Notes under the pieces: model-generated | Database searches by the model: none | Seen by the model: the letters and a program-made list of their open reading frames with translations, nothing else | Told to the model about the DNA's origin: nothing | Source of the DNA: an uncultured Verrucomicrobiota bacterium | GTDB taxonomy: Bacteria; Auribacterota; JABMQX01 | Length of the DNA stretch: 64,000 nucleotides | Assembly: GCA_964482435.1 (NCBI GenBank) | Contig: CAYZXL010000003.1 | Span: forward strand, 69,472-133,471 | Direction: 5' to 3' | Translations under genes and position numbers: made by a program | Shown here: one piece after another, positions 43,379 to 62,161 of the stretch | Numbering within the stretch: the first letter of the stretch is position 1 | Layout: every line of letters begins with the position of its first letter

Positions 43379-43483
43379 TTCGATAACGCTCCGAGTGAAC
43401 CCACGCGCGGCCGCGCGCTGGACGAGGCGGTCGCAATCATCACCAAATTGCCGCAATTGCGACAGTGAACCTGCATTTGCTTT

Positions 43484-44107: not shown

Positions 44108-44213
44108 GTTCTCACCTCCTAACCGCCGAGGCTGAACCCTCTCTCGGCAACACCGGGTTCGCGAGTTCGTTTTTTCGGGAACTGCGGCACTCGGGCGCCC
44201 CGCTGTCGGTGCC

Positions 44214-45980
44214 TTATGGCTGCCGCCGGGCGAGCGTCTCCTGTGCCGGGATGTCCGCTCGGATCACATCCGAACGAGTCTCTTGCCGCACCGCATCGGC
44301 GGAATGGCTCGTCAGGGAGCCCGGGGCTTTGCCTGCTCCCTGCCCCTTCGGAATCACAAGCGCCACCGTGGTCCCTTTCCCTTCCTCGCTGGTGATTTCT
44401 ATCCGTCCGTTGTGCTCTCTGACGATTTTCTCCGCTATGCACAAGCCGATTCCCACGCCTTCTTTCTTTGTCGTGAAAAACGGCTCAAAAACCTTGCTGA
44501 GGGTTTGTGGCGACATGCCGCGGCCGGTATCCGCGACGGTTACAATATAGGAGTCAGTGTCGGCCGGGGAACTCTCCAACTTTATGTAAATAGTGCCGTT
44601 TCCCTCCATCGCCTCCACAGCATTTGAAAGCAAGTTAAGGAAAACCTGCCCCATCTGACATCTATCCGCGGAAACAATCGGTGGCTCCTCCGGCGTGACT
44701 AACTCGACCCGAACGTCTGCCGGCAGCTTCCCTCCCCGCCCGAGCATTTCTATTGATTCCCTGATTATCTCACGAAGATTTTCCTTTTTCATGTCGAGGT
44801 TCCCTTTCCGGGCATAGGCGAGGAAATCTTCGATGATTCTGTTCAAACGAGCCGATTCCCTCAGGACAACCGATAGAAGCTCCTTATTGCTTTCCGACAA
44901 GCCCGGCGACTCCGCGAGCATTTCAATTGACCCGCCGATGGAAGTCAGCGGGTTTCTTATCTCATGTGCTATCCCCGCCGCCAGTTCCCCCGCTGTTCGG
45001 AACTTATCAATCGCCCGAAGCCGCTTTTCCAGCTCCTTGACCTCCGTCAGGTCCGAGAAAACCATCACCTTACCCACAGGCTTGCCCGACCGGTCAAGAA
45101 TCGTCGAAAGATTGAAGCCGACAGGGATCTCCTTCCCCTCAGCGTTGCGAGCCAGGAGCTCTCGCTCGCGAATCCCGGCATCTCCCTTGCGTTCCCGCGG
45201 GTTGTCCAGAGCCTCCTTGAGAGCCCCCATTTGACCGTCCGCGAAGAACTCCATTAGGTTTCGATTATACATCATCTTCGAAGGAACGCCCAGGATTTTT
45301 TCTGCGGCGCGGTTGGCATAGACGATGGCGCTGGAGGTATCCGTCGTGATTAAGCCGCTGTTCATGCTGGAGACAACGTGCTCGTGGAGATTCCTCAACT
45401 CTCTCAGTTCCTCCTTCTCTTTTCTAAGAAGGTTAGCGAGGTATCCGCATAAATAACCAACCATGCAGAAAATGATCGCACGGATGTAAAGGGAGTAAAA
45501 AATCTCCAGATCGCCGGCCCTCTCGCCCGGGGACAGGTGATACCGATGAAAGAGAACAAGGGCTGCGTACAACATGCTGCTCAGAAGAGCGATGGATATG
45601 GTCTGCCGACGATGAAAGAAAAGACTGGCTGTCGTAATTGGAATTATGTAGAGAAAGCCGAAGATGCTCTTCTCCCACCCCGAAAGAGCTACCAGCAGCG
45701 TCACAAGAAACACGTCGGCAAAAATCTGAACGTTTGCGAAGAGCTCGGGGTCGAAGCCCCACTCCAGAAGCAGAACGTAAATCAAAGTCAGCGAGAAAAG
45801 GGCACCGGTAAATAGGTACAGGGAAGGCGCGTAGGTGCGAAAGAACAGCGGCCCAAGGACGAAGACCGCAACCGTCACCAGAAGGCGCATAAGGAGCATC
45901 CGCCGGAGGTTGCCGTTCACCCCGGAGTCAGCCAGCGTGCCCGCGTGGGAGGTGGGGCCGGGTGCCCTTGTTGACTTCAT
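44214..45980 (-). CDS. sensor histidine kinase, PilS-like (multi-TM N-terminus, PAS, HisKA, HATPase_c)
   Basis: About six N-terminal TM helices. PAS (IVYANRAAEKILG). H-box ELAAGIAHEIRNPLTSI. N, G1 and G2 boxes (LLSNAVEAM, DTGRGM, GVGIGL). Start uncertain (45980 or 45899; the ORF is open to 46055). Confidence 0.8.
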   Translation of the reverse strand: MKSTRAPGPTSHAGTLADSGVNGNLRRMLLMRLLVTVAVFVLGPLFFRTYAPSLYLFTGALFSLTLIYVLLLEWGFDPELFANVQIFADVFLVTLLVALSGWEKSIFGFLYIIPITTASLFFHRRQTISIALLSSMLYAALVLFHRYHLSPGERAGDLEIFYSLYIRAIIFCMVGYLCGYLANLLRKEKEELRELRNLHEHVVSSMNSGLITTDTSSAIVYANRAAEKILGVPSKMMYNRNLMEFFADGQMGALKEALDNPRERKGDAGIRERELLARNAEGKEIPVGFNLSTILDRSGKPVGKVMVFSDLTEVKELEKRLRAIDKFRTAGELAAGIAHEIRNPLTSIGGSIEMLAESPGLSESNKELLSVVLRESARLNRIIEDFLAYARKGNLDMKKENLREIIRESIEMLGRGGKLPADVRVELVTPEEPPIVSADRCQMGQVFLNLLSNAVEAMEGNGTIYIKLESSPADTDSYIVTVADTGRGMSPQTLSKVFEPFFTTKKEGVGIGLCIAEKIVREHNGRIEITSEEGKGTTVALVIPKGQGAGKAPGSLTSHSADAVRQETRSDVIRADIPAQETLARRQP

Positions 45981-46006
45981 TGCCGACACGTTCTTGTCCC
46001 CCGGTG

Positions 46007-47215
46007 CTACATATGGACGATGGTGGAAAGTCGGAATATCGGCAGGAACATGCATATCACAATCCCGCCGACGACAATCCCGAGAAAAGCAATGAGAAGA
46101 GGCTCGATCATGGAGGTCAGGCCGCTGACCGCCGCATCCACCTCGGAATCATAGAAGTCGGAAATCTTCGACAGCATCACTTCCAGTTTGCCGGTCTGCT
46201 CTCCGACGGCAATCATCTTGGTGACCATCGGGGGAAACACGTCGCTCGCGGCGAGAGGGCCGGCGATGTTCTCACCCTTCTTGATCTCTTCCATTGCTTG
46301 ATTAACAGCTCGCTCGACGAGCTTATTGCCCGCCGTCCTCGAGACGATGTCGAGGGCGCTGAGGATCGGCACGCCGCTTTTGACGAGAACCGAAAGCGTC
46401 CGGCTGAAACGCGACACAGCCACCTTTCTGAATATTGGGCCGAAGATCGGGAGGTTCACTTTGAATTTGTCAAGGCGCAACCTCCCGGACTCGGTTTTGA
46501 CGTATTTTCTCAAGGCAATGATCCCCACGATGAGGGCGCCGACGCAGAAGGGGAAGTAAGCCCGCATGAAGTTGCTCAGGTTCAAAAGCATCTGCGTGGG
46601 AGTCGGCAAAGCGGAGCCAAAGCTCTCGTAAATCTTACCGAAGACGGGGATGACCTTGATCAAAAGGACGGTGGTGATGATGACGGCCATGCAACTGACG
46701 ATCGCCGGATACATCATGGCGGACTTGACCTTTCGTTTCAGGGCCATGGTGGCTTCCATATAGCTTGCTATCCGGTCGAGAATTTCCGCCAGGGTGCCGC
46801 TGGCCTCTCCGGCCCGCACCATGTTGATGAACAACGAGGAGAAGACTTTCGGGTGAGCCGCCAGGGCATCGGAGAATGTCGCCCCTTCCTCGATGTTTTT
46901 GACTATGTCCTGAAGTACCACCTTCAGGGAAGGGCTTTCCGCTTGCTCGGCGAGAGTGTCGAGAGCCTGGACGAGAGGGAGCCCCGCGTCCACCATCGTC
47001 GCCAGTTGCCTGCTGAATACGACAATGTCTCCTCCCTTTACCTTCCGTTTCCCCTTTTTGATCCCGGTGCCCGAACGTACCTCTTCGGAGACCGAAAGGA
47101 TGATCAGACCCTTGTTCCTGAGAGCGGCGACGACCGCACGCTCGCTCTCCGCTTCCATTGTTGCCAAGATGTCGCGGCCACCTGTGTCTTTGGCAGAGTA
47201 CCTGAAAAGACTCAC
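46007..47215 (-). CDS. type II secretion / type IV pilus inner-membrane platform protein (GspF/PilC family)
   Basis: Two T2SSF repeats. 402 aa, three TM segments. Typical architecture. Confidence 0.85.
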   Translation of the reverse strand: MSLFRYSAKDTGGRDILATMEAESERAVVAALRNKGLIILSVSEEVRSGTGIKKGKRKVKGGDIVVFSRQLATMVDAGLPLVQALDTLAEQAESPSLKVVLQDIVKNIEEGATFSDALAAHPKVFSSLFINMVRAGEASGTLAEILDRIASYMEATMALKRKVKSAMMYPAIVSCMAVIITTVLLIKVIPVFGKIYESFGSALPTPTQMLLNLSNFMRAYFPFCVGALIVGIIALRKYVKTESGRLRLDKFKVNLPIFGPIFRKVAVSRFSRTLSVLVKSGVPILSALDIVSRTAGNKLVERAVNQAMEEIKKGENIAGPLAASDVFPPMVTKMIAVGEQTGKLEVMLSKISDFYDSEVDAAVSGLTSMIEPLLIAFLGIVVGGIVICMFLPIFRLSTIVHM

Positions 47216-47395: not shown

Positions 47396-49114
47396 CTAAT
47401 CTGCGGCCGTCTCCCTCAGAACCTCTTCCAGAGTCGTCTTGCCTTCTGCGGCTCTCGTGAGGGCGTTCATCCTCATTGTCCGCATTCCATGGTCCATGGC
47501 GACCTTCTTGATATCAGTTGAGGGGGCCCGCTTGACCACCAGGCTTCTCAGCTCGTCATCCATCTTGAACAGTTCTATGATTGACATCCTCCCCTTGTAG
47601 CCCGACCCCCCACAGCGATGACAGCCCGCCCCGTGGCAGAAGCTGACGGGTTTCCCGGGGATTGGCTTGTACTGACACCTTTCAAGGGTGCGGGCGTCAA
47701 TCTCAATCGGCTTCTTGCACCCCTCGCAAATTCTGCGAACCAACCTCTGCGCCATAATCATGATCACCGACGACGAAATCAAGAACGGCTCAACTCCCAT
47801 ATCGTCGAGCCGTGTGATGGCGCTGGGGGCATCGTTTGTGTGGAGCGTGCTGAATACGAGGTGCCCCGTCAGAGCCGCTTTTATGGCGATGTCAGCCGTC
47901 TCCTGGTCACGAATTTCTCCGACAAGCACGACGTTCGGGTCCTGCCGGAGGATTGACCGCAACCCGGTCGCAAACGTCAGGTCAATTTCCGGGTTCACCT
48001 GGACCTGGTTGATCCCCATAATCTGGTATTCGATCGGGTCTTCGACGGTAATAATATTGGTCTCGGGCTCGTTTATTTCCGACAGGGCGGCGTAGAGGGT
48101 TGTCGTCTTGCCGCTTCCGGTTGGCCCGGTTACAAGGATCATGCCGTAGGGGGCACGGATCGCCTCCCGGAGTTTCGCCATGGCGTCCTCGTCAAACCCC
48201 AGGTCGTCCAGCTTCCGGGCGGAGGCGCTCTTGTCCAGAATTCGCAGGACAACCTTCTCCCCGTAGGCCGTCGGAAGAACCGACACACGAAAATCAACGT
48301 CCCGCCCCTTCAGCTTTATCCGGAACCGTCCGTCCTGGGGTCGGCGTCTCTCGGCGATGTCCAGCTTGGAGATAATCTTCACTCTCGAGACAATCGCGCA
48401 GTGCATGGCTTTGGGAGGGGAGGTGCGCTCGTGGAGAATTCCGTCAACACGATACCTAACCCTCATTTCCTTCTCGAAAGGCTCAATGTGAATATCGCTT
48501 GCGCCTTCCGTGATGGCCTGGACGAGAATTATGTTGAGGATCTGAATGACCGAGGTGTCGCCGGTTGCCTGAAGGAGCTGCTCGACGTCTATCTCCTGGT
48601 CGCTTTCCTCGTCCCTGGCGACCTCCACACTGGGAACTGACGCCGTATCCTTCAGGATCGTCTCCAGGCCCTGCTTCGCGGAATAGATTTCGTCGAGCTT
48701 GGCCTGGACATCCTTTGGGTTGCTAATGACGGGCTGGATTTCCATTCCGGTCATGAGGCGGAGGTCGTCAATGGCAAAAACGTTGAGGGGGTCGGCCATC
48801 GCTACGGTGAGGGTGTTTCCGACTTTTGAGATGGGGACGACCTGATAGAACATCGCCAACTGCTTGGAGATGAGCACTACGACCTCCTCCGGAATCTTCA
48901 TCTTGCTGAGGTTGACAGGAGGAATTCCCAGATGGGCGCTGAGGCTCGTCATCAGCTCATCCGGACCCACGAAGCTGTGCTCGATGAGAACTCGGCCAAG
49001 CTGCCCGCCGGTTTCCTTCTGGATTCGCTTGGCTTCCTCGAGCTGTTCTTCGGTGATGAGTTGGCTGTCAATGAGAACCTGAACCAGTCTTTCCTTGAGC
49101 GATGCGTTTGCCAT
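47396..49114 (-). CDS. type II secretion / type IV pilus assembly ATPase (GspE/PilB family)
   Basis: N-terminal T2SSE_N/MshEN domain. Walker A GPTGSGKTT. Asp box, His box, tetracysteine zinc motif CEGC...CHRC. Start MANASLKERL at 49114. Confidence 0.9.
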   Translation of the reverse strand: MANASLKERLVQVLIDSQLITEEQLEEAKRIQKETGGQLGRVLIEHSFVGPDELMTSLSAHLGIPPVNLSKMKIPEEVVVLISKQLAMFYQVVPISKVGNTLTVAMADPLNVFAIDDLRLMTGMEIQPVISNPKDVQAKLDEIYSAKQGLETILKDTASVPSVEVARDEESDQEIDVEQLLQATGDTSVIQILNIILVQAITEGASDIHIEPFEKEMRVRYRVDGILHERTSPPKAMHCAIVSRVKIISKLDIAERRRPQDGRFRIKLKGRDVDFRVSVLPTAYGEKVVLRILDKSASARKLDDLGFDEDAMAKLREAIRAPYGMILVTGPTGSGKTTTLYAALSEINEPETNIITVEDPIEYQIMGINQVQVNPEIDLTFATGLRSILRQDPNVVLVGEIRDQETADIAIKAALTGHLVFSTLHTNDAPSAITRLDDMGVEPFLISSSVIMIMAQRLVRRICEGCKKPIEIDARTLERCQYKPIPGKPVSFCHGAGCHRCGGSGYKGRMSIIELFKMDDELRSLVVKRAPSTDIKKVAMDHGMRTMRMNALTRAAEGKTTLEEVLRETAAD

Positions 49115-49225
49115 AGCCGTTAGTCTCCCCCGGAGCGCCCGCATGCTGCTGCTTGGGCAGCGGCCGGGCTGTCATTCTGTGGCCCCCCGGAAATCTTACC
49201 TGGGGCTACGCGTACAACGACCGTG

Positions 49226-50737
49226 CTAAGCATAGTATTGCTCGTGCTTTTGTTTGATGTGAGACCATGAGCTGATGAAATAGCTCACTTTCATGTTCCC
49301 TGAGTGCCGCTGAACTTCGTCTTTCTGATCCTTGTTGAGGGGTATCCCCATAGCCACAAGGAGCGTATCGCCAATCCTGTCCACGGGCATCAAGGTGTGC
49401 TTGAGAGCGATTTCCTTCGGAACCATGGTCGCCACATCATCGCTGATGTCGTAGTTTTCCAGAGGAAGATAAGGAACTCCCGCCTGGGCAACTAAGGCGT
49501 TAATGATGTCCTCCTCCTTGGCATAGCCGGCCTCAACGAGAATCTGGCCAATGGGCTTATGGTCTTTCGCCTGTCTGGCAACTGCCTCGTCCAACCGCTC
49601 TCGGCTGACCACCCCCTGCTGAACCAGAATGGCCCCCAGGGCTTTTCCGACCTCATCCCTGCTTGTCTTCCGCGGGGCTGGTCCTTGCCCGGCTTCAGCA
49701 GCCGGCTCCCTGACTGTCTGGAGCTCGCGGGGTGCCACTACCACTACTTCCCCAGGGGCCTGTTCCTCTCGCTGCCCTGTCGTAGAGGGCTGAGCCGAAT
49801 GAATCCCGCGCGCCTTGTGAAGGAGCTTTTCCCCTTCTTTCAGTTTCGCCTGTAGCTCGCGAACTTCCTCCTTCACTTTCCGAAGAGCAAGGTCCGCACC
49901 AGCTTGCTCCTGCTCCAGGCGTGCGACCACCTCCTGCCACGCGGACCGCAACTCTAATTCACCGCGCTCTTTGGCCTCCTCGATGCTGCGATGAAACTCC
50001 CTTTCGCGTTCCTCGCTGATTCGCTTCCATTCCTGCTGGAAAATGGCGTCAGTCGAAGCGAGGAGCTTTTCTGCTTGCTTGACGCTCTTGCGGATATCAT
50101 GAGACTCGTCATCCTGTATTATCTTATCCGCTTTTTTCTTGATGCTTTCGGCAACCTGGTTGAAGACCTGGGCTTCGCCCTCGTTCAGCCACCGTTCGCG
50201 CTCAGCCACGAGCTGCTGGAGCTCACTTTCTTTTTTCGCCTCGATTGCTTGCAGGATGCTACGTGTTTGGTCGTCCTCCCCCCTTCTGGCGTCGCGCACC
50301 TTCACGCAGGCCTTCAGGAAAACCTCTTCTGCCTCCTCCAATTCTCGCTGCTTGTGGGCACAGATGCTCTTGATCTCCTGTAGCTCCGCTTGGAGCTTTA
50401 GACTCGGCACGTCCGTCCCCGAATACCCGATCTCATCCAGCCTGGATGCGGCCTCCGTGTCGTTCGGGTCAGTCTTGAGCACCTCGAAATACTCATTTGC
50501 CGCCATCTCCTTCTGGCCGGAGGCAAGGTAAACCTCCGCCAGACCCTTAGTGACCCGCTTGAGGTCGGCACTCCTATTCAACTGCCGGTAAACTTCCTTC
50601 AGCGGCAGGTAGTTCTGGGCAACCTCGGGGGCTGTCCGAAGAATCATCTCGAACATCTCCGCGGAGCGCTCGAGCTGGTCCCTGTCTGCCGAAGCAGTTC
50701 TATGAGTCGGTTCGCGCTTTGTGCCCTGGGACTCCAC
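49226..50737 (-). CDS. TPR + long coiled-coil protein with C-terminal T2SSE_N (GspE N-terminal-like) domain
   Basis: N-terminal TPR-like helices (LAEVYLASGQKEMAANEYFEVLKTDPND). About 250-aa E/K/R/Q coiled-coil. C-terminal LGAILVQQGVVSRERLDEAVARQ...GQILVEAGYAKEEDIINALVAQAG, which matches the MshEN/T2SSE_N fold. Confidence 0.6.
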   Translation of the reverse strand: MESQGTKREPTHRTASADRDQLERSAEMFEMILRTAPEVAQNYLPLKEVYRQLNRSADLKRVTKGLAEVYLASGQKEMAANEYFEVLKTDPNDTEAASRLDEIGYSGTDVPSLKLQAELQEIKSICAHKQRELEEAEEVFLKACVKVRDARRGEDDQTRSILQAIEAKKESELQQLVAERERWLNEGEAQVFNQVAESIKKKADKIIQDDESHDIRKSVKQAEKLLASTDAIFQQEWKRISEEREREFHRSIEEAKERGELELRSAWQEVVARLEQEQAGADLALRKVKEEVRELQAKLKEGEKLLHKARGIHSAQPSTTGQREEQAPGEVVVVAPRELQTVREPAAEAGQGPAPRKTSRDEVGKALGAILVQQGVVSRERLDEAVARQAKDHKPIGQILVEAGYAKEEDIINALVAQAGVPYLPLENYDISDDVATMVPKEIALKHTLMPVDRIGDTLLVAMGIPLNKDQKDEVQRHSGNMKVSYFISSWSHIKQKHEQYYA

Positions 50738-51485: not shown

Positions 51486-52098
51486 ATCCCGGTCTCCTTT
51501 CCTGCCCGTTTTTGACAGGAGCAATCGCGTGTTCGCTTTCGCAGAGACTTGCACGAAGATGGGGGGCCGGGTTCTCCCGCCGTCTGCACGGCCTAACTTC
51601 CGGGAAAATGTCCTGGACCCATCCACCCCCTGCTGGTTCTTCGCGGAAAAGCTCTCTTGCGGTGGGCTAATTGCTCCTATTTGTGAGTGGTGTGATGTAT
51701 TGTTCACTGACGAGACAACAGTATCGCCAGGGTTCTTCGAATCCCGGAAAGACGTCCTTAAAGTTGTCCGGCGTTGAGCGTGACCCGCGCCCGGATCGTC
51801 TTGTCCATTCTGTAATCCCGTCAGACCACGCCTTCGGCGTGGCTCCGAACGCGATGCGCAGCCGCTTTTCACGACGACGCTACTCAAGAGGTCTGACGCT
51901 TCGCCCGGGTGGCATCGCCGTTCCGTCGCGCCTCAAAAAGCCTCCGGCTTTCGCGCGGCGTTCCCCGCGAGAACGCGGGGTCATCTTTTACGGGGAATTG
52001 CTCCCGCGCGAGGGAAGTCTCCGGTTTTGAACGTATTAGCGACTAACCCCCGGCTGTTTTGATGTGTTCGGCGGAAATGTGAACCTTTGCCTTGCTGT

Positions 52099-55000
52099 TC
52101 ACCTGCCGATAAGCTCAACCGCCCTGGCTGCCTTTGTCCTGACCAAACCCTCTCCGCAGTTCGCTGGAAAAATACAAAGAAGATAGGCGGAGGGGTTTTT
52201 GCCCCTGGGTACGCTCGACCTGTTAAGGGTTACCTTTGCGTCCCCGCTGACAAGAAGCAGCGATTGGAATTCTCCCAACCCCGCATACTCGGAACGCCGA
52301 GAAAGCGACTCCAGGTCGAAGATGCCCGCCTTGAGGAATGAGTCCACATAATCTCCCTCGCCCCACACAATCACCAGCCTTTGACCGGGGCTGGTGGAAG
52401 TGGAAAGGTAACTCCCTATTCCGGCCTCGGCAAGAGTCGCAACCACCTGCTGGCAGACCTCTTCCGGCACCCCGTCCGGCTTCAGAGGGGTTGCTTCCCC
52501 TTCGGGCCTGGCGGAACGAGCGACCGGCCGCGCTTTTAGATCAACTTCCATCAGAGACAAGAGGTCTCGCAACTCGGTATCTAACTTGTCGAAGAGCAAG
52601 CTTGTGAAACCCGCACCGTTTCGGTTGAAGCTCCCCAGAACCATCAGGCGGCGGGCATCTCCACGAACCATTTCTCTGGTTACAACCATCCCGTTCCTTG
52701 CCGAGACCGCAATCTTGAATGGCTCACCGAGACCATGGTCAGAGCAGAACTTTTGCCCTTGTGCCCACAGACCGACTACCTCGGCGGCCAAAATCTCCGA
52801 ATTCAGGTTCGGGGGGGTCAAAAGGACTACGGACGTGTCGGCGACGGATAGGGCAGCATGCTCGGAAATCCCCAGTCCCTGACATTTTTGAATGAGGTTG
52901 CGCAGAATTGTTCCGGCGGTCCTTGGGACAGCCTCCTGCTTTTGAGGCGCAACGCCCACCTCTATGTGGCGTTCCGCACAAGTTTGCACCTGTGACTTCA
53001 CTCCCACTCGTGCTGACGCGCTTCGGCTCACGAGCTCACCAGAAGCGACCTCGCCGCCAGGTTCGGCGACGGCAACGGCGGGTTCGCCCCGGACTTCGTG
53101 GGGAATTTCCTCGAAAGGTGAGGAGATTTCCTCACACGCCGGCTGGAGCTTTTGGTCGGCGGGACGTTCCAAGACTTCCGCAAAAACCTGCGACACCATT
53201 TCCTGCAACGGAAGCTCGGCCAGCCCTTCGGCAAAGCGGCTCTTCACCTGCTCCACAGACATGGAGAGGCACCCGGGTGGGAATTGGGCTGTAAGAAGCT
53301 CGACGGGCACCACGACTCTTCCCTCCTTCAACTGCGCCACGACCATACTTCTGGGCACCTTCACTGTCTCCCCTCCGAGGTGCATCGCCAGTTCCTCTTT
53401 TGAAACGCGGAAAGCACCTTCGGGCAGAAGGCGAACCACGGCGCCGAGGGAAAGAGAAAGCGGGTTTGCCTCCCTCCGAAGTTCCTCGGCGAAAGAAGGG
53501 GCAGGGGCTTTTTTCTCCCGAAAGGGAATGGGTGTGGGCTTTGGCTGTGGCTTTTGCGCCGCTGCGGGAATTCTCGCCTCCCCAACGACCTGCGAGCGGG
53601 GCAGCTCATTAAAAGGATTGGGCATTTCTTCAAGGATGGGCTGCTGCTCCTGTTTCGGCGGGGCAAGGACCTCCGGCGGCAACTGCGGGACAATCTCGCG
53701 GAGTGGAAGAATAACCTCCCCGCTTCTCAGCGAGCGGATGATGTCGGCCTCCGAAATCGAAATGCGCCCCTCCGGGAATTGGGCCAGGACGAATTTGCCT
53801 TTCAGCTTGACCTCGCCCCGGGCGAGCTGCGGCAGAATTAGTTCCATGGGGACCACGACTGTATCCGGCAGACGGGGGAGGCGGTCCAAGTTCTCCGAGA
53901 GGACCGACCCTTCAGGGAATTGAGAGATGATTGACTCGGTGTTAAGGTGAACGACCTGGCGTGAGCGCTCAAAGAGAAGCCGCTCTTCCTCGCGGACAAC
54001 AAAAGCCTCGTCGGGGAGCGCCTCGGCAGGTTCGAACACTCGTTGAGGGGGAAGCATTTTTTCCCTCTTTCGTTCCTTCACTGCACCAGCGGGCTTTTCC
54101 GCAATAACGATTGGAGGTCCGCTGGGCGCCTGGAAGAAATCAGGAAATTCCTCTTCGATATCCGGCTGGAAGTCCTGCTGAGGAAGCTGGAAGATTTCCG
54201 CCGGGAGGCGTCGAACGACTTCGCCCAGCGGCAGTTCTATTTCGCCGTCCGGGAACTTGCGGGCGACTTCCTCCGGGGGATGGAGGAACGCATCCGGCGC
54301 TATCCCTGAGATGACAGTCATGACGTCCACCACAACTCTCCCCTCCGAAAGTTGCGGAAGAACCACCTCCAGGGGTATCGCGACGGAAGGCGAGATTTCT
54401 TCGATTTCCTCGGGGGACATGGCCAGTTCGCCCTCCGGGAAAAACTTGAGGATTTCTCCCACCGGAATAAGGACACGGTCCTTTTCTTCTGCAAGGGCTG
54501 CTGGCGCTTCAGGGGCTTCGGCAACCTCCGCCGGAACAAATGGCCCCATGGGCGCCGACCCTTCGTACTCCCCGACCGGAGCCTCTGCGACGGCGACTTG
54601 CTTCATTACCTCGGCCGGGCTCTCACCGACGGAGACGGCCCATTCCTCCTTCTCTTCTGCCGCGGCATGTGGAATGGCGCCCTCGCGGGCCTCTGGCTGA
54701 ATGCCAAGCAAGTCCCTCAAGAACATGATGACCATGCCGCTCATAAGGATGTGGACGAGGACCGAGGGGAGCGAAAGAAAACTCGCCCTCAAGGCAGCTT
54801 CTGTGAGGTCCGGGTAAGTTTTGAGATGGAAGAAGGCGGCTGTCACCCCCACGAACACCGCTTTGGAAAAGCACAGGAGGACAAACGCCTTTAGCCAGTT
54901 CTTCAGGCCCGAGAAGCTCGTCAAAAGTGCGGATAGAACCGCGAAAACGAAGACCGTGAAAGGAGCCGACATCCACCATTCCAACTGAAGGTATGCCGGA

Positions 55001-55131
55001 CTCCCCTTGTCTCGCAGAGAGACCCAGAAGGTTTCAAGGACGCGGGTCAAAAGCCCATCAATCCCTGCCATCAGCAGGATAACGATGACCACCCACCCGA
55101 GACTCGCACTGCTTTTTTTCGGCTCATCCAT
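52099..55131 (-). CDS. large membrane-anchored repeat protein with two C-terminal roadblock/LC7 (MglB-like) domains
   Basis: 1010 aa. Four N-terminal TM helices. Six tandem ~45-aa repeats of pattern (I/V)LxxFPEGx(L/I)xxSxEE(I/L)...G(E/R)VxLPLxE(V/I)VxQLPxEV. C-terminal ~300 aa with two beta-alpha-beta-beta-alpha modules (GTILRNLIQKCQGLGISEHAALSVADTSVVLL...; ...LVIVWGEGDYVDSFLKAGIF...). Confidence 0.6.
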   Translation of the reverse strand: MDEPKKSSASLGWVVIVILLMAGIDGLLTRVLETFWVSLRDKGSPAYLQLEWWMSAPFTVFVFAVLSALLTSFSGLKNWLKAFVLLCFSKAVFVGVTAAFFHLKTYPDLTEAALRASFLSLPSVLVHILMSGMVIMFLRDLLGIQPEAREGAIPHAAAEEKEEWAVSVGESPAEVMKQVAVAEAPVGEYEGSAPMGPFVPAEVAEAPEAPAALAEEKDRVLIPVGEILKFFPEGELAMSPEEIEEISPSVAIPLEVVLPQLSEGRVVVDVMTVISGIAPDAFLHPPEEVARKFPDGEIELPLGEVVRRLPAEIFQLPQQDFQPDIEEEFPDFFQAPSGPPIVIAEKPAGAVKERKREKMLPPQRVFEPAEALPDEAFVVREEERLLFERSRQVVHLNTESIISQFPEGSVLSENLDRLPRLPDTVVVPMELILPQLARGEVKLKGKFVLAQFPEGRISISEADIIRSLRSGEVILPLREIVPQLPPEVLAPPKQEQQPILEEMPNPFNELPRSQVVGEARIPAAAQKPQPKPTPIPFREKKAPAPSFAEELRREANPLSLSLGAVVRLLPEGAFRVSKEELAMHLGGETVKVPRSMVVAQLKEGRVVVPVELLTAQFPPGCLSMSVEQVKSRFAEGLAELPLQEMVSQVFAEVLERPADQKLQPACEEISSPFEEIPHEVRGEPAVAVAEPGGEVASGELVSRSASARVGVKSQVQTCAERHIEVGVAPQKQEAVPRTAGTILRNLIQKCQGLGISEHAALSVADTSVVLLTPPNLNSEILAAEVVGLWAQGQKFCSDHGLGEPFKIAVSARNGMVVTREMVRGDARRLMVLGSFNRNGAGFTSLLFDKLDTELRDLLSLMEVDLKARPVARSARPEGEATPLKPDGVPEEVCQQVVATLAEAGIGSYLSTSTSPGQRLVIVWGEGDYVDSFLKAGIFDLESLSRRSEYAGLGEFQSLLLVSGDAKVTLNRSSVPRGKNPSAYLLCIFPANCGEGLVRTKAARAVELIGR

Positions 55132-55264: not shown

Positions 55265-56506
55265 TCAGACCTTCCCTGAGGACTTGTTCTTCAGGGCCTT
55301 GACCGCTCTGGCGAAAGGCTCAAAGGTTATCGTAAAAACCGTTCGCTCACCGAACCAGCTTGCCGCAGTTATGGAAGCGTTATGAGCTTCGACGATCTGC
55401 CGCGCAAGACACAGACCCAGCCCCGTTCCTTTTGGCTTTGTCGTAAAGAATGGGTCAAAAATCTTCGAAACGCAGTCCGAAGGGATTCCCTCGCCGTTGT
55501 CCTCGACTTCGACCTGGGCACATCCATCCGGGGCAGCTACGCCACTGATGGAAAGCCTTCCGTTGGCGCCCATTGCGTCAATCGCATTGGTGAATATCGA
55601 GTAGAACACCTGCTCAAGCTGGGCCGGATCACCCAGAATCGTCGGAAAATCGCGGTCGAATCGCTGCGAGACGCCGATTTTCTTTTCTGCTATCTCTTCG
55701 CTCACCGCAAACAACGAATGGGCGATGACATCCTTCAGGTCGGTCTCAGTGACATTCAGGTCCCTGGGATGAACGACGTTGAGGAGTTCCTCAATTATCC
55801 GCTCGATTTTGTCAACTTCCTGGTCAATCAAGTCCACCGTCTGGACGGTGTGGCTGGAGGAACCTGCCACGTCTTTCCGGAGAAGCTGCATCCCAAGCTT
55901 TATGGAGGCAAGGGGATTGCGAACTTTGTGGGCGACTACTGCGGACATCTCTCCCAGGGAAATCAACAGCTCCCGCCTTGCCTTTTGCTCCCTGAGCCTG
56001 GCCACCTGGGAAAGGTCAACGAAGCTCGCCAGGACGCCGATGATCCGGTTGGAGGTGTCTTTCAGTGGCGCGGTGCTGATGCCAATCCGGACGCGCTCAC
56101 CGTTCTTCTTGAGCATGACGGTCTCTTCCTGGTGAAAGACCTGTCCCTTGTGGAGACTCTCTTCAACCCACGACGGCTTGCCTCGTTCCGGACAAAACAC
56201 GCTCCTCATGGGCTTGCCGACCACTTCCGAGGCATTGCGACCAAGCATCTTCTCCGCGGCTCGATTGAAGAACGTCACGTTCTCCTCGAGGTCAACAGTC
56301 AGGACTCCGCCGGTGATGTTCTGCAAGATGCTCTCGATGAACTCCTCGTCCTGTGGCGCCTTTTCGCCTCTGGCAAAACCGGGCTTCTTACCAACCGCAA
56401 GGGAACCGCCGAGAGAGCCATCGAAGCCCTTCGTCCTCGGGGCATGAGCCAGGGGGTCTTTAGAGTTGTTTGATTTCCGCATTTCGTCCGTGCGCATGCT
56501 TTTCAT
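55265..56506 (-). CDS. cytoplasmic PAS-domain sensor histidine kinase
   Basis: PAS ([30 protein letters not shown]). H-box [14 protein letters not shown] and G boxes ([21 protein letters not shown]). Start MKSMRTD with GAAAGGA RBS. Confidence 0.8.
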
Positions 56507-56596
56507 TCGATTCCTTTCTACGTACTCTGTGGCGCCTGCCAAAAAAGACATCGCCCTTCGGCGTCATCCGGCTGGCGCTGAAGCCGACGAACAACC

Positions 56597-57385
56597 TCAC
56601 GGAATCCGGAGGTTGTATCGCTTTCCTTTGAAAGCAAAGGTGATCCGACCGGAAGATATTTCAGCTATCTCAGCTTGTCCGAGCTTGTCGCCTTTCTTGA
56701 ACCCGCGGCCATCTACGAGAGCGACATACCCGTTGGCGTCTTTGTAAACCCCGGAGACTTTCAGGTTGAGGAGGAAGCTCTTAGTCCGTGCGTCCTCTTC
56801 CGGCGTCAAGACTTCCAGAGCAGGTGCAACGACCGGTGATTTCGCCGTCGGAACCTCCGGCGGAGGGCCGCCAATGGACGGGCCTGTCGAGTCTCCAACG
56901 CCGGGGCTATGACCGGGACTCGGTATCACGGCCGAAGTAGCAGCGGAAGCTACTGGCACGACAACCGGTTCTTCAGGCTCAGACGCCACTGCCGGAGCGG
57001 CCGCCTTCTGCATGTCCCTGATAGCATTGTCCGCAACACCGGCGACGGACGCTTCAACGGATGGCGCCGAGGCGACTTGACCCGACTGCCTCTGCTCCGT
57101 CGGCTCGGTCCGGGCGGAGGCTATGACCTGGCCTTGAGGCCCACGGTCCGGAATGGCGGTGGAGCCTCTCTCCTTGCCTCTCCACATCTTCCAGACCACA
57201 AGAACCGCTAAAAGAACTGCTGCTGCGGCGAGCAAATAGCGAGCCACGTGAGCGCGCGGCGCTTCCGGTCGCGCCCCCTGACGCAAACTCGGCGGAGGGC
57301 ACGGCTCGGAGTTCTGCGCTTCCGTGGGGCCTATGCCCCCCCGTGCCGCCTCCACCTCCCGCAGGCGGTCCATTATTCTGCTCAC
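56597..57385 (-). CDS. GspB/ExeB-like membrane protein (partner of GspA)
   Basis: Single TM (YLLAAAAVLLAVLVVW). Pro/Ala/Ser-rich linker. Conserved C-terminal domain FLLNLKVSGVYKDANGYVALVDGRGFKKGDKLG. Sits immediately downstream of the GspA-like gene. Confidence 0.5.
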   Translation of the reverse strand: MSRIMDRLREVEAARGGIGPTEAQNSEPCPPPSLRQGARPEAPRAHVARYLLAAAAVLLAVLVVWKMWRGKERGSTAIPDRGPQGQVIASARTEPTEQRQSGQVASAPSVEASVAGVADNAIRDMQKAAAPAVASEPEEPVVVPVASAATSAVIPSPGHSPGVGDSTGPSIGGPPPEVPTAKSPVVAPALEVLTPEEDARTKSFLLNLKVSGVYKDANGYVALVDGRGFKKGDKLGQAEIAEISSGRITFAFKGKRYNLRIP

Positions 57386-57420
57386 AGCGTCTCTCCTCTT
57401 TCCTCAGCCAGTACCGCTAA

Positions 57421-59310
57421 TCAGCCTGGCGGACGCAGATGCGGAACGTTTGTTCCATCCCGCGAAGCGTACAGGAACAGTTTCGTATAGCCGTCCGCCT
57501 CGCCGTTGATCGGCAGGCCGTGGTCTCTCTGAAAAGCCATGACCGCAGCGGTGGTCTCCGGAGTGAACCATCCGCTCGGATTGCCAGCGAAGTAGCCCCC
57601 TTCTTTCATATAATCCTGGAGCTTGCGGACGCTGAGGCTCAGGCTTTGCCCCTGCCGCAAAACCGAGGGTTCGACGAAATCGTCCCCGCACAGAACGACG
57701 GCGTTGCCACCGTAAAGCCTGGAAAAGAGCTGCATGTCCACCCTCTTCGTCCCGTCAGCGGTGGCAAGTTCCACCCACGTCTCCCCCATGTTGATGACCG
57801 CAACGAAGCCTCTTTGCTCGTCCACATCGCCAATCATCTCTACGACCACCGGCAGGTCTATCTCGCGGAGCCTTTCAATCGGCGCCCGGAGGCTCAACCA
57901 CCCCATTTTAGCTGCCGCCGCCAGGTTCGGCAGATGCCCGCCGACCTCGTTGTATCGCTCCCGGACGGCCTCGATCAGTTCCGGAGGTCTTTTCCACGCG
58001 CGTAACAAAGCGCATAGCGGATCAATGAGCGAACGATACGCCAGGACCTGGCGCTCCAGTGCTTTGGCCAGCGGCGAGGCCTTCGGAATATCCACCTTCG
58101 GACGAGGCGGCAGGACCGTCAGCGGTTCCGGGTCTTCCCGGAACAGCGGCTCCATGCCCACTGTCAATATATCGGGTATGGTCTGACCTATCCGCGAGGT
58201 AGCGCCTGCGAGAAATGCCAGCCGCATTACGGAAGGCGCCGGCTCCGCAAGAAGCTCCGGCGGCTCGCGCAGGACACGCGCGGCCCCGGGTGCACCAGCC
58301 GGGCTTTCCCCTTCCGCGGGCGACCCCGAGTCGGTCCTTGCGATGCGTCCGACAAACTCCTCCGGCCGCTGCGGCAACAGGGATTTCCCTGTTATCGTCT
58401 GGAGAGCTGAGAACGCAATGAGAGCTGCCGCCAGAACCAGTCCGACTCCCGCACCTACCCTGGCGATGGAGAACTCACGGCTCAGGAAGCGCACCGGCTG
58501 CGTGCCGACCCCCTCGATCTCCGTCTCGGAGGCGAGGACCATCTTCCGGTCAATCCGCATGGAATTGGCGACGTAGCCAGCAAGGAGCGCCTGGTCGCAG
58601 ATGACGTTTACCATTCTTGGTATGCCGCGAGAGAAGCGGTAGATTTCGTTAAGAGCGGACTTCGTGAAGACGACATTTCCGGAAGAGCCTGCCACCTTCA
58701 GCCGATGGTAGATATACTGTATAGTCTCATGGCGAGTCAGGGGAGTGATGTGGTGCCGCACTGTGATTCGCTGATTGAGCTGCCTGAGCTTTGGGGAGCC
58801 GAGGAGGCGGCGAAGCTCCGGCTGTCCAACGAGAACAATCTGCAACAGCTTCTCTTTCTCCGTCTCCAGGTTGGACAACATCCGAATCTGTTCCAGGACA
58901 GGGAAGGAGAGGTTTTGGGCCTCGTCAATGACCAGAACGACGTTCTTGCCCTTCATTCGCTGGTCGAGGAGGAACTTGTTGAGCTCATCAATGAATTCCT
59001 TTTTCGTCTGTCCGGTCGTCTGGATGCCGAGTTCCTCGTTGATAGTCTTGAGCAACTCCAGCTCCGAAAGAAACGAATTGAGGATCAGTGCCACTTCCGT
59101 GTTCGGCCCGAGCTTTTTGAGAAGAGCCCGGCAGATGGTCGTCTTTCCGGAGCCAACCTCCCCGCTGACCATGATGAAGCCTTTGCGGCTGTTGACGCCA
59201 TACAGAAGGTGAGCAAGAACTTCCCGGTGAACCCGGCTCGGATACAAAAAGTTGGCGTCCGGGGTCAGGTTGAACGGCGATTCCAAAAGACCGTAGAAGT
59301 CAAGGTACAT
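57421..59310 (-). CDS. GspA/ExeA-like AAA ATPase with C-terminal peptidoglycan-binding domain
   Basis: MYLDFYGLLESPFNLTPDANFLY (ExeA N-terminus). Walker A GEVGSGKTT. Walker B VLVIDEAQNL. TM. C-terminal PG_binding_1 (TAAVMAFQRDHGLPINGEADGYT). Confidence 0.8.
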   Translation of the reverse strand: MYLDFYGLLESPFNLTPDANFLYPSRVHREVLAHLLYGVNSRKGFIMVSGEVGSGKTTICRALLKKLGPNTEVALILNSFLSELELLKTINEELGIQTTGQTKKEFIDELNKFLLDQRMKGKNVVLVIDEAQNLSFPVLEQIRMLSNLETEKEKLLQIVLVGQPELRRLLGSPKLRQLNQRITVRHHITPLTRHETIQYIYHRLKVAGSSGNVVFTKSALNEIYRFSRGIPRMVNVICDQALLAGYVANSMRIDRKMVLASETEIEGVGTQPVRFLSREFSIARVGAGVGLVLAAALIAFSALQTITGKSLLPQRPEEFVGRIARTDSGSPAEGESPAGAPGAARVLREPPELLAEPAPSVMRLAFLAGATSRIGQTIPDILTVGMEPLFREDPEPLTVLPPRPKVDIPKASPLAKALERQVLAYRSLIDPLCALLRAWKRPPELIEAVRERYNEVGGHLPNLAAAAKMGWLSLRAPIERLREIDLPVVVEMIGDVDEQRGFVAVINMGETWVELATADGTKRVDMQLFSRLYGGNAVVLCGDDFVEPSVLRQGQSLSLSVRKLQDYMKEGGYFAGNPSGWFTPETTAAVMAFQRDHGLPINGEADGYTKLFLYASRDGTNVPHLRPPG

Positions 59311-59363: not shown

Positions 59364-60026
59364 TCAAACGTTTTCTCCCTTCAGATAGACCCTCTTTTTG
59401 TGGATTCGCAGCTTTTCGGTTTCTCCAGTTTCAAGCCCAAGAAGATTGCCGATGACTTCTCTTAGACGCCCGCCTCGACCGCCCTCCCGCAGGACAACCG
59501 AGAGCACTTTTCTGCCGGTGCCGTTGTCATGCAAGGAGGCGCGTAAGAGACGCTCGCCAGGACCTTTTCCTGAAGCGTTCTCGTCCTGGAAACCGGCTGC
59601 GCGATCCCCCTCCGCGGAAATCAAACCTTCAAGCCGGTCCGGATTCAACGGACCAGCATCTCCCTGTCCTATCTCGTACTCGGCCGCCCAGATGCTTGCC
59701 TGTAGAGCCGCCGGCGTTCCCTCCGAAACCCGCACTTCCTCGATGGAAAAGCCTTGCGGCAGTTTGGACTGAATTCTCTCCTTCATGGTCTCTGGCTCGG
59801 TTCGTTGGGGTATTTTCACATCGAGGTATTCGCATTCGCTCGTGCACCCCAGTGGAAGAGGAGGGCCAAAAGAGACACGAAACCGGGGAGAAAAACCTTC
59901 CGAGTAAACCCCTTCGATCCCCGCCCTTCTGAAGGCTCGCAGGAGAGCGCGCGTCGTGTCAAGGTGCCCTATGAACCTGACAAGACCATTCTTACGATAC
60001 TTTATTCGCGCCGTGAAGCCCTGCAT
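59364..60026 (-). CDS. radical SAM-linked protein (DUF2344/TIGR03936 family)
   Basis: KYRKNGLVRFIGHLDTTRALLRAFRRAGIEGVYSEGFSPRFRVSFGPPLPLG matches the TIGR03936 core. Adjacent to a TIGR03960-type radical SAM gene. Confidence 0.65.
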   Translation of the reverse strand: MQGFTARIKYRKNGLVRFIGHLDTTRALLRAFRRAGIEGVYSEGFSPRFRVSFGPPLPLGCTSECEYLDVKIPQRTEPETMKERIQSKLPQGFSIEEVRVSEGTPAALQASIWAAEYEIGQGDAGPLNPDRLEGLISAEGDRAAGFQDENASGKGPGERLLRASLHDNGTGRKVLSVVLREGGRGGRLREVIGNLLGLETGETEKLRIHKKRVYLKGENV

Positions 60027-60295
60027 GTGCCTGCCGTCAGAAGTATTGTGGTTGCAGCGCAATCAAACCAATAAGCTGCCCTGGGCGCCGATAGCAAGAA
60101 TTCTGCCACGCTCGGCCCGTTATTCTCACGGGTGAGAAAGCCCATCGCCTAACCTTCACGATTCCTTTTTTCAGCCAGCCGTGGGCCCAGCGCAAGGCTC
60201 GCCTACCCGGGCTGACCGGACCGCTTCAAAGAGTCGGCCCCCTGCGGCTCGCGTTTCGTGCCTTTTCATTCTGCTTGTGCCAAACGGCGCCATCG

Positions 60296-62161
60296 CTACT
60301 TCGGTGCTTCATCCGCCGCGTCCTGTCTTGAGGACTCGCGCTCGGCGATCAACGATTGCTTGCTTATCCCGCACGAAATGTGGTCCCAGGGCAGGACTTC
60401 GTCGTACGCTCGCTCACGACACGCATAGAAATCCGGGTCAATGTTGCTTTCCCGAAACGCTTCCAGCCACGTGTCATACCGAAAATGTTCCGTCCAATCA
60501 TCAAGGCGGCAGCCCTTCTGCCATGCCCGGTAGATGGCCGATGACAGCCGCCTATCACCACGTGAAAAGACAGCTTCCAGGTAGCTTTTGTGAGGGTCGT
60601 GGAACTTGAGTTTTACGTTTTTCTCTTTTATCAAGCGCCTAATATACAGAATCTTGCGCTGAAGGTCAAGAGTGCTGTGGAATTTTTCCCACTGAAATGG
60701 AGTGTGGGCTTTTGGGACGAACGGGGCGATGCTCAAGTTGAGGTGTCCGCGCCTGCCGTCCACCTTCTTCCTGGCGTCGGCAATTTTGTACACAAGCTCC
60801 GCGAGGGCAGCGATGTCCTCGTCGCGTTCTGTCGGGAGGCCAATCATGAAGTAGAGTTTTATCAACCTCCAACCGGCAGCATAGGCAGCTTCGGCGGCGG
60901 CGAGAACGTCCTCCTCCTCCAAATTCTTGTTTATAACCTTTCGGAGACGCGCGGTTGCCGCCTCAATGGCGAGGGTTACGCCAGTCTTTTTCGTTGGCTG
61001 CGTGCGCTCGAGCAGCCTGATGGAGAAGGTGTCTGGCCTGAGAGAAGGGAGAGAGATGGCTGTGCGGTCGCTCCCAAGACACTCAGAGAGACGCAGTACC
61101 ACTTCGTTTATCTCTCGGTGGTCTCCCGTGGAAAGGGAAGAAAGGGAGATTTCCTCGAAGCCGGTTGCCTCAATGAGGCGCTTTGCTCTGCTGATAATTT
61201 CCGAGGCGGGCAATTCCCTCACCGGCCGATAAAGCATCCCGGCCTGACAGAATCGGCACCCCCGCCCGCATCCTCTCATCACCTCCACAACCGCACGGTC
61301 CTGGACAACCTCGATGAACGGCACGATCGGCTTCTCGGGGTACGGTGCCGCGGCAAGGTTCTTGACAGTCCTTTTCCGAACTGTGCCGGGGATGCCTTCC
61401 TCGTTCGGTTCGACGCTCAGGATACTCCCAGAGGATGCAGGCGAGACGCCTGCGCTACAGCCAGGATTGGAATCGTATTCCACCCGGTAGAAGTGCGGGA
61501 CGTACATTCCCTCGTATTTCGTGGCAAGCGCCCGAAGAAAGTCAATCCTCGCGCGTGGATTCGACCCAATCCGTTCCCGGAATCCTCCCGCTCGGAACTC
61601 TTGCAGGATTTCTACAATCGCCTCCTCCCCTTCGCCCACGACGAACAGGTCAATAAACTCCCACATCGGCTCCGGCACAAATGCGCCGAGTCCTCCCGCA
61701 ATGACTATGGGCCCGCCCGCCTTGCACCTTTCTTCAAAACGAAGCGGGATGCCTCCTAAGTCCAGCATGTTCAAAACGTTCGTGTAGCAGAGCTCGTATC
61801 CAACGGAGAAGCCCACGATGTCGAAATCTTTCAGCGGAGTGAGACTCTCGAGGGAATAAAGCGGGATTGACTTCTCGCGCATTCTTTCTTCCATGTCAAC
61901 CCAGGGAGCGAAGACCCTTTCCGCGACAGCCCAATCCAGCCGGTTGACGATTTCGTATAGGATTTGGATGCCGAGGTTGCTCATCCCTATCTCGTAGGTG
62001 TCGGGGAAGGCAATGGCAAAACTGACCTCGACGTCAGCACGCGATTTATTGACCGCGTTCAATTCCGAACCGATGTATCGCCCGGGGCGTACAACTTTCG
62101 GCAGGACTTCCGCCTCCAGAAGCCTGGCAAGGTCCGATGCCTTTAGCTTTATTGTGCTCAC
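60296..62161 (-). CDS. B12-binding-domain radical SAM protein (TIGR03960 family)
   Basis: N-terminal B12-binding-like domain. CxxxCxxC cluster MRGCGRGCRFCQAG. 621 aa. Confidence 0.8.
   Translation of the reverse strand: MSTIKLKASDLARLLEAEVLPKVVRPGRYIGSELNAVNKSRADVEVSFAIAFPDTYEIGMSNLGIQILYEIVNRLDWAVAERVFAPWVDMEERMREKSIPLYSLESLTPLKDFDIVGFSVGYELCYTNVLNMLDLGGIPLRFEERCKAGGPIVIAGGLGAFVPEPMWEFIDLFVVGEGEEAIVEILQEFRAGGFRERIGSNPRARIDFLRALATKYEGMYVPHFYRVEYDSNPGCSAGVSPASSGSILSVEPNEEGIPGTVRKRTVKNLAAAPYPEKPIVPFIEVVQDRAVVEVMRGCGRGCRFCQAGMLYRPVRELPASEIISRAKRLIEATGFEEISLSSLSTGDHREINEVVLRLSECLGSDRTAISLPSLRPDTFSIRLLERTQPTKKTGVTLAIEAATARLRKVINKNLEEEDVLAAAEAAYAAGWRLIKLYFMIGLPTERDEDIAALAELVYKIADARKKVDGRRGHLNLSIAPFVPKAHTPFQWEKFHSTLDLQRKILYIRRLIKEKNVKLKFHDPHKSYLEAVFSRGDRRLSSAIYRAWQKGCRLDDWTEHFRYDTWLEAFRESNIDPDFYACRERAYDEVLPWDHISCGISKQSLIAERESSRQDAADEAPK

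Follow-up and report, generated by a model that had tools for sequence, protein, structure and literature searches.

The 64,000-nucleotide stretch of contig CAYZXL010000003.1 analysed here (positions 69,472 to 133,471, from an uncultured Verrucomicrobiota bacterium), hereafter the window, encodes within a type IV pilus gene cluster an unnamed inner-membrane protein of 1010 aa, the target of this study. Its N-terminal four-helix anchor is followed by three copies of an undescribed domain, which we call REP, each with an acidic motif behind it, and by a tandem pair of divergent Roadblock/LC7 domains at the C-terminus. It probably supplies, at the membrane, a link that was missing from pilus placement. 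The reading towards which we lean, without firm conviction, is that it acts as a membrane-anchored scaffold by which a switch of the Roadblock/small-GTPase type, or a different kind of signal, would be coupled to the pilus motor, a proposal drawn from sequence comparison, structure prediction and gene order.

Architecture of the protein

The gene is a minus-strand open reading frame (ORF) with an ATG start, taken from the ORF list (Table 1). One identical protein and 18 relatives are on record, the latter full-length and 42-49% identical, all of them unnamed or labelled "hypothetical protein", and the target has zero matches in Pfam and NCBIfam. An alignment of 17 homologues (A1) shows that all modules of the target are conserved: mean identity across the family is 57-60% in the transmembrane (TM) block and the REP domains, 49-56% in the motifs behind the REP domains, and 45-47% in the Roadblock lobes, where some residues are invariant. 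The linkers between modules, rich in acidic residues and proline and with predicted disorder, reach 19-34%, and those that separate the REP domains are 66-77 aa long and poorly conserved.

REP is an undescribed alpha/beta domain of ~97 aa, with no match in Pfam and neither a sequence nor a fold match in the PDB. Single-unit hidden Markov models (HMMs) built from the 17 homologues recover the other units in the target, the B units at independent E-values of 1e-9 to 1e-17 and the A units at 1e-5 to 1e-9, and A and B units match each other at 1e-4 to 1e-5, which makes each REP an internal duplication. Two units of ~45 aa make up one domain, so that the six amount to three REP domains of ~97 aa. 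Self-BLAST of the target gave no information on repeats. The three target copies align nearly without gaps with one another and with the domains of very distant homologues (alignment A2), and a REP modelled alone by AlphaFold, with the scores given in Table 1, runs through the order beta-alpha-(beta)-alpha-beta-alpha twice. Searches with the REP profile returned nothing credible among PDB sequences and no significant match in an index of 5.8 billion proteins, the best Foldseek match of the REP model to PDB folds had E = 7, and among 60 distant relatives no Pfam family covers the REP region. A gamma-tubulin complex match at E=0.035, which came from the PDB search with full-length and REP profiles, was judged spurious. 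Behind each REP, on a disordered tether, stands a conserved acidic motif, EE-x-P-x-PF, and the distant branch of the superfamily described below carries this same motif, ExFPxPF, behind its REP domains (profile consensus).

Both C-terminal lobes are divergent Roadblock/LC7 domains, an assignment settled by topology, by Foldseek and by a lobe profile that matches Roadblock structures in the PDB. In the AlphaFold model each lobe follows the order alpha-beta-beta-alpha-beta-beta-beta-alpha, exactly that of the Roadblock sandwich fold of ~100-125 residues, with predicted local distance difference test (pLDDT) values of 82-93. The sole high-probability Foldseek matches of the full-length model are 5x6v_B, a Ragulator-Rag/LAMTOR structure (probability 0.98, TM-score 0.57), and the Asgard Roadblock3 9jue_B (probability 0.84, TM-score 0.61); the E-values of this full-length search are diluted, and its probability and TM-score columns alone are informative. 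Matches of the same model to HPPD and to the proteasome were discarded as spurious multi-domain matches. Whether started from lobe 1 or from lobe 2, iterative searches arrive at both lobes in ~149 of the 181 collected proteins, which shows the lobes to be homologues of one another.

Profile comparisons place the lobes in the Roadblock superfamily by a transitive route. The Robl_LC7 family scores above the Pfam gathering score only in a branch of REP proteins that combine a helix-hairpin-helix (HhH) domain with a Roadblock domain (P0128, 35.1 bits; P0136, 26.8; further positives are P0132 at 24.2 and P0112 at 23.7 bits), and a broad lobe profile built without these HhH-class proteins matches precisely their Robl_LC7 regions, at P=5e-7 to 2e-5. 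Narrow family alignments gave weak results in hhalign (P=0.004-0.03), and broader profiles were used instead. One of these, lobe profile A6, contains both target lobes and excludes HhH-class sequences; its seven PDB matches at E<=10 are without exception Roadblock proteins. The strongest is 7f8m_A (E=2.8e-5, aligned across the full domain), and the others are 9jue_D, MglB (6h5b, 6izw, 6hjm), CvnB5 (3leq) and a LAMTOR3 orthologue.

At the other end of the protein, hydropathy places four hydrophobic segments within residues ~6-145, and these coincide with long AlphaFold helices at residues 9-42, 56-70, 76-104 and 109-141. The positive-inside rule, together with an even helix count and the location of Roadblock partners in the cytoplasm, leads us to predict an N-in/C-in topology for the anchor, and the remainder of the protein would accordingly lie in the cytoplasm.

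A first-pass annotation of the window, made by a model from the letters and a list of ORFs, had described much of this plan. The three repeat peptides that it quoted from the 1010-aa ORF occur exactly, at residues 221-270, 444-489 and 560-608; its four N-terminal TM helices agree with both hydropathy and the AlphaFold helices; and the two Roadblock/LC7 modules that it placed at the C-terminus are borne out by AlphaFold topology, Foldseek and the PDB profile matches. Its six tandem repeats are real, with E-values down to 1e-17, but they do not form a plain array, being the halves of three duplicated domains. That they fit no known family was upheld by the Pfam, PDB sequence and PDB fold searches, and the structure prediction that it had suggested for the repeats yielded a confident model for REP alone.

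A superfamily linked to mglA, mglB and pilB

Run exhaustively with HMMER (E<=1e-3), the family profile places the target in a superfamily of at least 316 clusters, mostly matched through REP, and a metagenome scan found 336 relatives. Local domain mapping gives TM-REP(1 to 7)-Roadblock-Roadblock as the usual plan. All members found are labelled "hypothetical protein" and have no precomputed Pfam domain; the named ones come from metagenome-assembled genomes (MAGs) of Rokubacteria/Methylomirabilota.

Neighbours were counted at 80 retained metagenomic loci, a locus being eligible for a given count only if it had enough flanking DNA. In the main branch an MglA-like gene lies directly downstream at all 70 eligible loci (70/70), an MglB-like gene lies downstream at 59 of 59, and PilB lies downstream at 27 of 31; upstream, a response regulator with a PATAN domain (RR-PATAN) is present at 40 of 42. 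The full order in distant members is Che cluster, RR-PATAN, a response regulator-Roadblock protein (RR-Roadblock), REP protein, MglA-type GTPase, MglB-type Roadblock and PilB. The hint of a polarity or motility control system in the first-pass annotation is strengthened by these distant members, which are followed directly by mglA, mglB and pilB at essentially all loci.

The same gene pattern occurs in several other lineages, so the linkage is not confined to one clade, and linkage to the pilus motor is seen in all branches examined. In the HhH branch the order is TPR-MshEN, PilB, REP protein, Arf-like GTPase and Roadblock. A planctomycete-like locus, with SBP_bac_10 pilins nearby, reads TPR-Roadblock, REP protein, Roadblock, Arf/RagA-like GTPase, Roadblock and PATAN, and continues with PilM-N-O and a secretin.

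The HhH branch represents a second architecture, REP-REP-HHH_3 (a ComEA-type helix-hairpin-helix, of the DNA-binding kind)-Roadblock, in which the Roadblock domain is Pfam-positive (P0098, P0112, P0124, P0128, P0132, P0136 and P0168); its proteins do not match the family TM-block profile. At the HhH-branch loci L010 and L011 an Arf-like GTPase gene and a Roadblock gene lie downstream; PilB precedes the REP gene in L010, and the L011 contig is so short that the gene upstream cannot be identified there. At L006-L008, L009, L012 and L096, response regulator-Roadblock fusions and a TPR-Roadblock fusion stand beside the REP protein, and some loci of this type hold three or four Roadblock-domain genes.

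Gene neighbourhood in the window and in close relatives

The target matches no pilus family in a Pfam scan, and its association with pili comes from gene neighbourhood alone. We rejected its identification as a core type IV pilus component, as it has no homology to any core family (PilB/C/M/N/O/P/Q/T, FimV), and as a protein of the FimV/HubP type, as it has no LysM, no TPR and no sequence similarity. Along the minus strand the order is RodA, radical SAM, DUF2344, an ExeA/GspA-like protein, a 262-aa protein, a PAS kinase and the target, and then a coiled-coil protein, a TPR(weak)-MshEN protein, PilB, PilC, PilS, a SHOCT-domain protein, PilR and the pilin (Table 1). The pilus gene cluster reported in the first-pass annotation is thus present, with PilB two genes downstream, followed by PilC, PilS, PilR and the pilin.

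This gene order, including PilB-PilC-PilS-PilR, is conserved in four species-representative genomes (two labelled uncultured Verrucomicrobiota and two unclassified) and also in an intermediate clade (L093). The target diverges faster than the motor genes that accompany it, at 42-45% identity as against ~80% for PilB and 77% for PilC.

Table 1. Modules of the target and neighbouring features, with positions counted from the first letter of the window
Feature	Residues	Position	Strand	Evidence or remark
Whole gene, TM-REP3-Roadblock2 protein, 1010 aa		52099-55131	-	ORF, homologues, alignment A1
N-terminal anchor, four TM helices	1-141	54709-55131	-	Hydropathy, AlphaFold helices, 59% mean family identity
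REP1	216-312	54196-54486	-	Unit HMMs, alignment A2; modelled alone by AlphaFold: pLDDT 88.9, predicted template modelling score (pTM) 0.74; no PDB fold match
Post-REP1 motif QDFQPDIEEEFPDFF	313-335	54127-54195	-	49% conserved, against 19-34% for linkers
REP2	390-488	53668-53964	-	Unit HMMs, AlphaFold, A2
Post-REP2 motif QEQQPILEEMPNPFNE	489-512	53596-53667	-	Alignment A1, module conservation
REP3	555-655	53167-53469	-	Unit HMMs, AlphaFold, A2
Post-REP3 motif QKLQPACEEISSPFEE	656-678	53098-53166	-	Alignment A1, module conservation
Roadblock/LC7 lobe 1	738-865	52537-52920	-	Topology, Foldseek, transitive profile, PDB profile matches
Roadblock/LC7 lobe 2	889-1010	52102-52467	-	Topology, Foldseek, profile searches, PDB matches
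RodA - radical SAM (Radical_SAM_N2) - DUF2344 block		59364-63351	-	Upstream of the pilus cluster
ExeA/GspA-like protein (AAA_22 + PG_binding_1), then 262-aa protein		56597-59310	-	262-aa protein: weak GspB C-terminal match (E=0.025)
Soluble PAS-HisKA-HATPase histidine kinase		55265-56551	-	Upstream; conserved neighbour in the target clade
Coiled-coil protein, ~185 aa		50928-51485	-	Downstream; conserved part begins MAKRRQ
503-aa protein: weak TPR, charged coiled region, C-terminal MshEN		49226-50737	-	Downstream
PilB-type extension ATPase (MshEN + T2SSE)		47396-49144	-	
PilC platform protein (T2SSF)		46007-47215	-	
PilS sensor kinase, SHOCT-domain protein, PilR sigma-54 activator		42029-46055	-	
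SHOCT-domain protein, 207 aa		43484-44107	-	Insertion separating PilS from PilR
Type IV pilin gene, 109 aa (MRGRKGFTLVEIMIVV... / MRGRKGFTLVEIMIVVAIIGLL...)		41001-41330	-	Just downstream of PilR
ORF of 704 aa		86-2200	+	No Pfam match at E<=1e-5
ORF of 530 aa		24344-25936	+	No Pfam match at E<=1e-5

Several features of the neighbouring genes deserve mention in their own right. The pilin gene completes a pilB-pilC-pilS-pilR-pilA cluster, and at the edge of this cluster the ExeA/GspA-like protein and the 262-aa protein resemble a secretin-assembly pair of the GspA/GspB type. The mechanical ORF of the coiled-coil gene, at 319 aa, is probably over-extended, its conserved part beginning at 51485. 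The relatives L002, L003 and L004 have an extra TPR gene of ~250 aa between the REP-Roadblock and coiled-coil genes; in its place the window has a 613-nt gap (51486-52098), in which no remnant of that gene is detectable. In L010 and L093, too, PilB is preceded by a gene that resembles the TPR-MshEN gene. A sub-threshold match to PATAN (PF14332) precedes MshEN in the TPR-MshEN protein and its L001, L003 and L093 orthologues (E=0.079, 0.0045, 0.62); if the match in the TPR-MshEN protein is real, the target clade would also hold the PATAN module that lies upstream in the main branch. Promoter and terminator scans around the target gene gave nothing above shuffled controls. Elsewhere the window carries housekeeping genes, among them those for MutS, TopA, a MiaB-like protein and EngA, and two large plus-strand ORFs (Table 1).

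Proposed mechanism and alternatives

What might a pair of Roadblock lobes do on a membrane protein beside a pilus motor? Known Roadblock proteins act as dimers on which small GTPases or further Roadblock proteins dock (MglB-MglA, MglC-MglB, LAMTOR-Rag), and the tandem lobes of the target are therefore most likely an intramolecular pseudo-dimer that serves as a platform of this kind. The tail, which is long, flexible and acidic, would be kept at the membrane by the four-helix anchor; the lobe pair at its end would dock MglA or MglB, or another Roadblock protein, and the multivalent REP/motif modules would bind PilB or a partner with an MshEN domain. In the main branch, the protein probably tethers the MglA/MglB switch to the membrane and couples it to PilB or the MshEN partner, an arrangement from which we infer an effect on piliation, in the form of control over the place and timing of pilus extension. 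In the target clade, where mglA and mglB are not linked to the gene, the same coupling probably operates with different or unlinked inputs, such as the PAS kinase, the coiled-coil protein and the TPR-MshEN protein.

A bolder version of this proposal, which we put forward tentatively and regard as rather doubtful in its full form, is that the protein is a counterpart of the Ragulator principle: a single membrane protein whose tandem-Roadblock platform would anchor MglA/MglB at the pilus base, whose REP domains and EE-x-P-x-PF peptides would capture PilB or the MshEN partner, and which in the target clade would have been rewired to input from the histidine kinase, the coiled-coil protein and MshEN. 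If this were true, a Ragulator-like scaffold would be the missing link of the polarity GTPases to the pilus motor in phyla without SgmX.

A number of observations weigh against a scaffold that couples a GTPase switch to the motor. The first-pass annotation had proposed a search for a small Ras-like GTPase, and tblastn of the window with an MglA-type GTPase (E<=1) and with Roadblock probes found neither a small GTPase nor a stand-alone Roadblock gene, EngA/Der being the sole GTPase in the window. An MglA-like GTPase and a stand-alone Roadblock gene are likewise absent within 10 kb on either side in four close relatives; a GTPase partner in the target clade, and a GTPase role in this organism, are therefore putative. 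A match to PF03259, which the first-pass annotation had named as a check on the C-terminus, was not obtained even at E<=10, the lobes being too divergent for Pfam, and profile-profile comparison of the lobes with the stand-alone MglB-like neighbours of the superfamily is in register with modest P-values (0.007 and 3e-4). The pseudo-dimer is a putative arrangement of the two lobes, and the full-length AlphaFold model has a pTM of only 0.36. Finally, the 80 metagenomic loci are mostly from soil and probably phylogenetically redundant, so the n/n linkage counts overstate the number of independent observations.

Some of these observations would be expected if no GTPase were involved at all. In such a scheme, which is a serious contender but in our judgement an unlikely one, the protein would be a membrane hub with a role like that of FimV/HubP: through its multivalent REP domains and motifs it would gather, at the cell pole or the base of the pilus, PilB or else the MshEN or coiled-coil protein, and the lobes would only self-associate. 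A hub would fit the lack of mglA and mglB in the window and near the close relatives, the long, acidic, proline-rich disordered tethers with their repeated binding modules, the coiled-coil and TPR-MshEN neighbours, and the fast sequence evolution relative to PilB. It fits less well with the conservation of both lobes and their invariant residues, or with the rest of the superfamily, which is nearly always co-operonic with mglA and mglB; together these argue for a role of the lobes connected with GTPases or Roadblock proteins, at least in ancestral forms.

Two further explanations turn on the genes upstream of the target. The target could be a partner of the adjacent PAS kinase, as in a conservon, docking the kinase at the membrane and modulating a phosphorelay, for instance PilR-dependent transcription of the pilin, and not acting on the motor. 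We find this improbable, as L093, the intermediate clade, has retained the scaffold together with the pilus genes but has no PAS kinase, adjacency to PilB is more widely conserved, and CvnC-like and CvnD-like genes are absent, although the soluble kinase gene does lie 133 bp upstream and is conserved in the target clade, the upstream genes of the main branch also belong to phosphorelays (CheA, RR-PATAN, RR-Roadblock), and in the conservons of actinobacteria a Roadblock protein comes with a kinase (PMC4316618). The target could also be a cell-envelope or cell-shape factor unrelated to pili, with incidental pilus synteny, and we give this explanation very little credence: the RodA - radical SAM - DUF2344 block is kept upstream in the target and intermediate clades, but pilus linkage recurs in distant branches (PilB; PilMNO and secretin) that have other neighbourhoods and lack the RodA block. 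Coupling of a Roadblock-type switch or another signal to the pilus motor remains the explanation that we prefer.

Comparison with known systems

The lobes share their fold with MglB and MglC, the regulators of the MglA GTPase in M. xanthus and Thermus: the lobe profile matches the MglB structures 6h5b, 6izw and 6hjm, and members of the superfamily are encoded directly beside mglA and mglB. MglB and MglC, however, are soluble, single-domain, homodimeric proteins of ~160 aa, whereas in the target two divergent lobes share one chain with the 4-TM anchor and the three REP copies, and the target lacks both a PF03259 match and a nearby mglA. The cognate MglA-type GTPase encoded nearby that marks an MglB-type GTPase-activating protein is missing from the window and is present at 70 of 70 distant loci.

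The proposed role is shared with SgmX, FrzS and SopA, which connect the MglA switch to the PilB extension ATPase (PMC11580455, PMC7519303). There is no similarity to these proteins in sequence or domains: SgmX is a TPR protein, FrzS combines a pseudo-receiver with a coiled coil, and all are soluble. The phyla differ too, the REP family being found in Methylomirabilota/Rokubacteria, in MAGs labelled Verrucomicrobiota and in planctomycete-like lineages. In M. xanthus MglA recruits PilB via SgmX by a mechanism described as "unknown" (PMC11580455), and the question of how small Ras-like GTPases are coupled physically to the pilus-extension ATPase stands even for this most thoroughly studied organism.

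Conservons resemble the locus in placing a Roadblock protein beside a histidine kinase, and CvnB5 (3leq) is among the lobe-profile matches, but there the anchor is in the kinase, a pilus context is lacking, and the CvnC and CvnD equivalents are absent here: of the four-gene unit the window has the adjacent kinase and neither a DUF742 protein nor a small GTPase. GltJ of M. xanthus has a zinc ribbon and a GYF domain, is not known to contain a Roadblock or REP domain, and serves gliding motility, not pili. Its likeness to the target is that of a membrane protein of the gliding machine that binds MglA-GTP and has a cytoplasmic tail that reads the MglA state (PMC11135422). Others have already remarked on the neighbourhood of PATAN, MglB and MglA (Wuichet and Sogaard-Andersen 2014, PMC4316618, citing Makarova et al. 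2006). In the open-access papers and bioRxiv preprints searched we found no account of a tandem-Roadblock protein integral to the membrane or of REP, and none of the present gene as a conserved companion of mglA-mglB-pilB. Given this and the known Roadblock superfamily, we regard the protein as part of a variant within a known kind of system, the control of motility machines by Roadblock proteins and small GTPases, that carries a new domain, REP.

In conclusion, a large unnamed superfamily emerges that, in uncultured soil phyla, shares an operon with mglA-mglB-pilB almost without exception, and it gives a first hint that bacteria possess a Roadblock platform integrated into the membrane. A "hypothetical protein" can now be linked to specific, testable interaction hypotheses, and REP offers a new domain for structural study. 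A parallel in logic is the eukaryotic Ragulator (LAMTOR) complex, in which membrane-held Roadblock pairs dock small GTPases, and which supplies both the best Foldseek match, 5x6v_B, and a LAMTOR3 protein among the profile matches. Ragulator is a multi-subunit complex held by the lipidated p18 anchor, whereas the target combines anchor and Roadblock pair in one polytopic protein. The likeness is one of logic and fold, not of family membership, with no evidence of direct descent.

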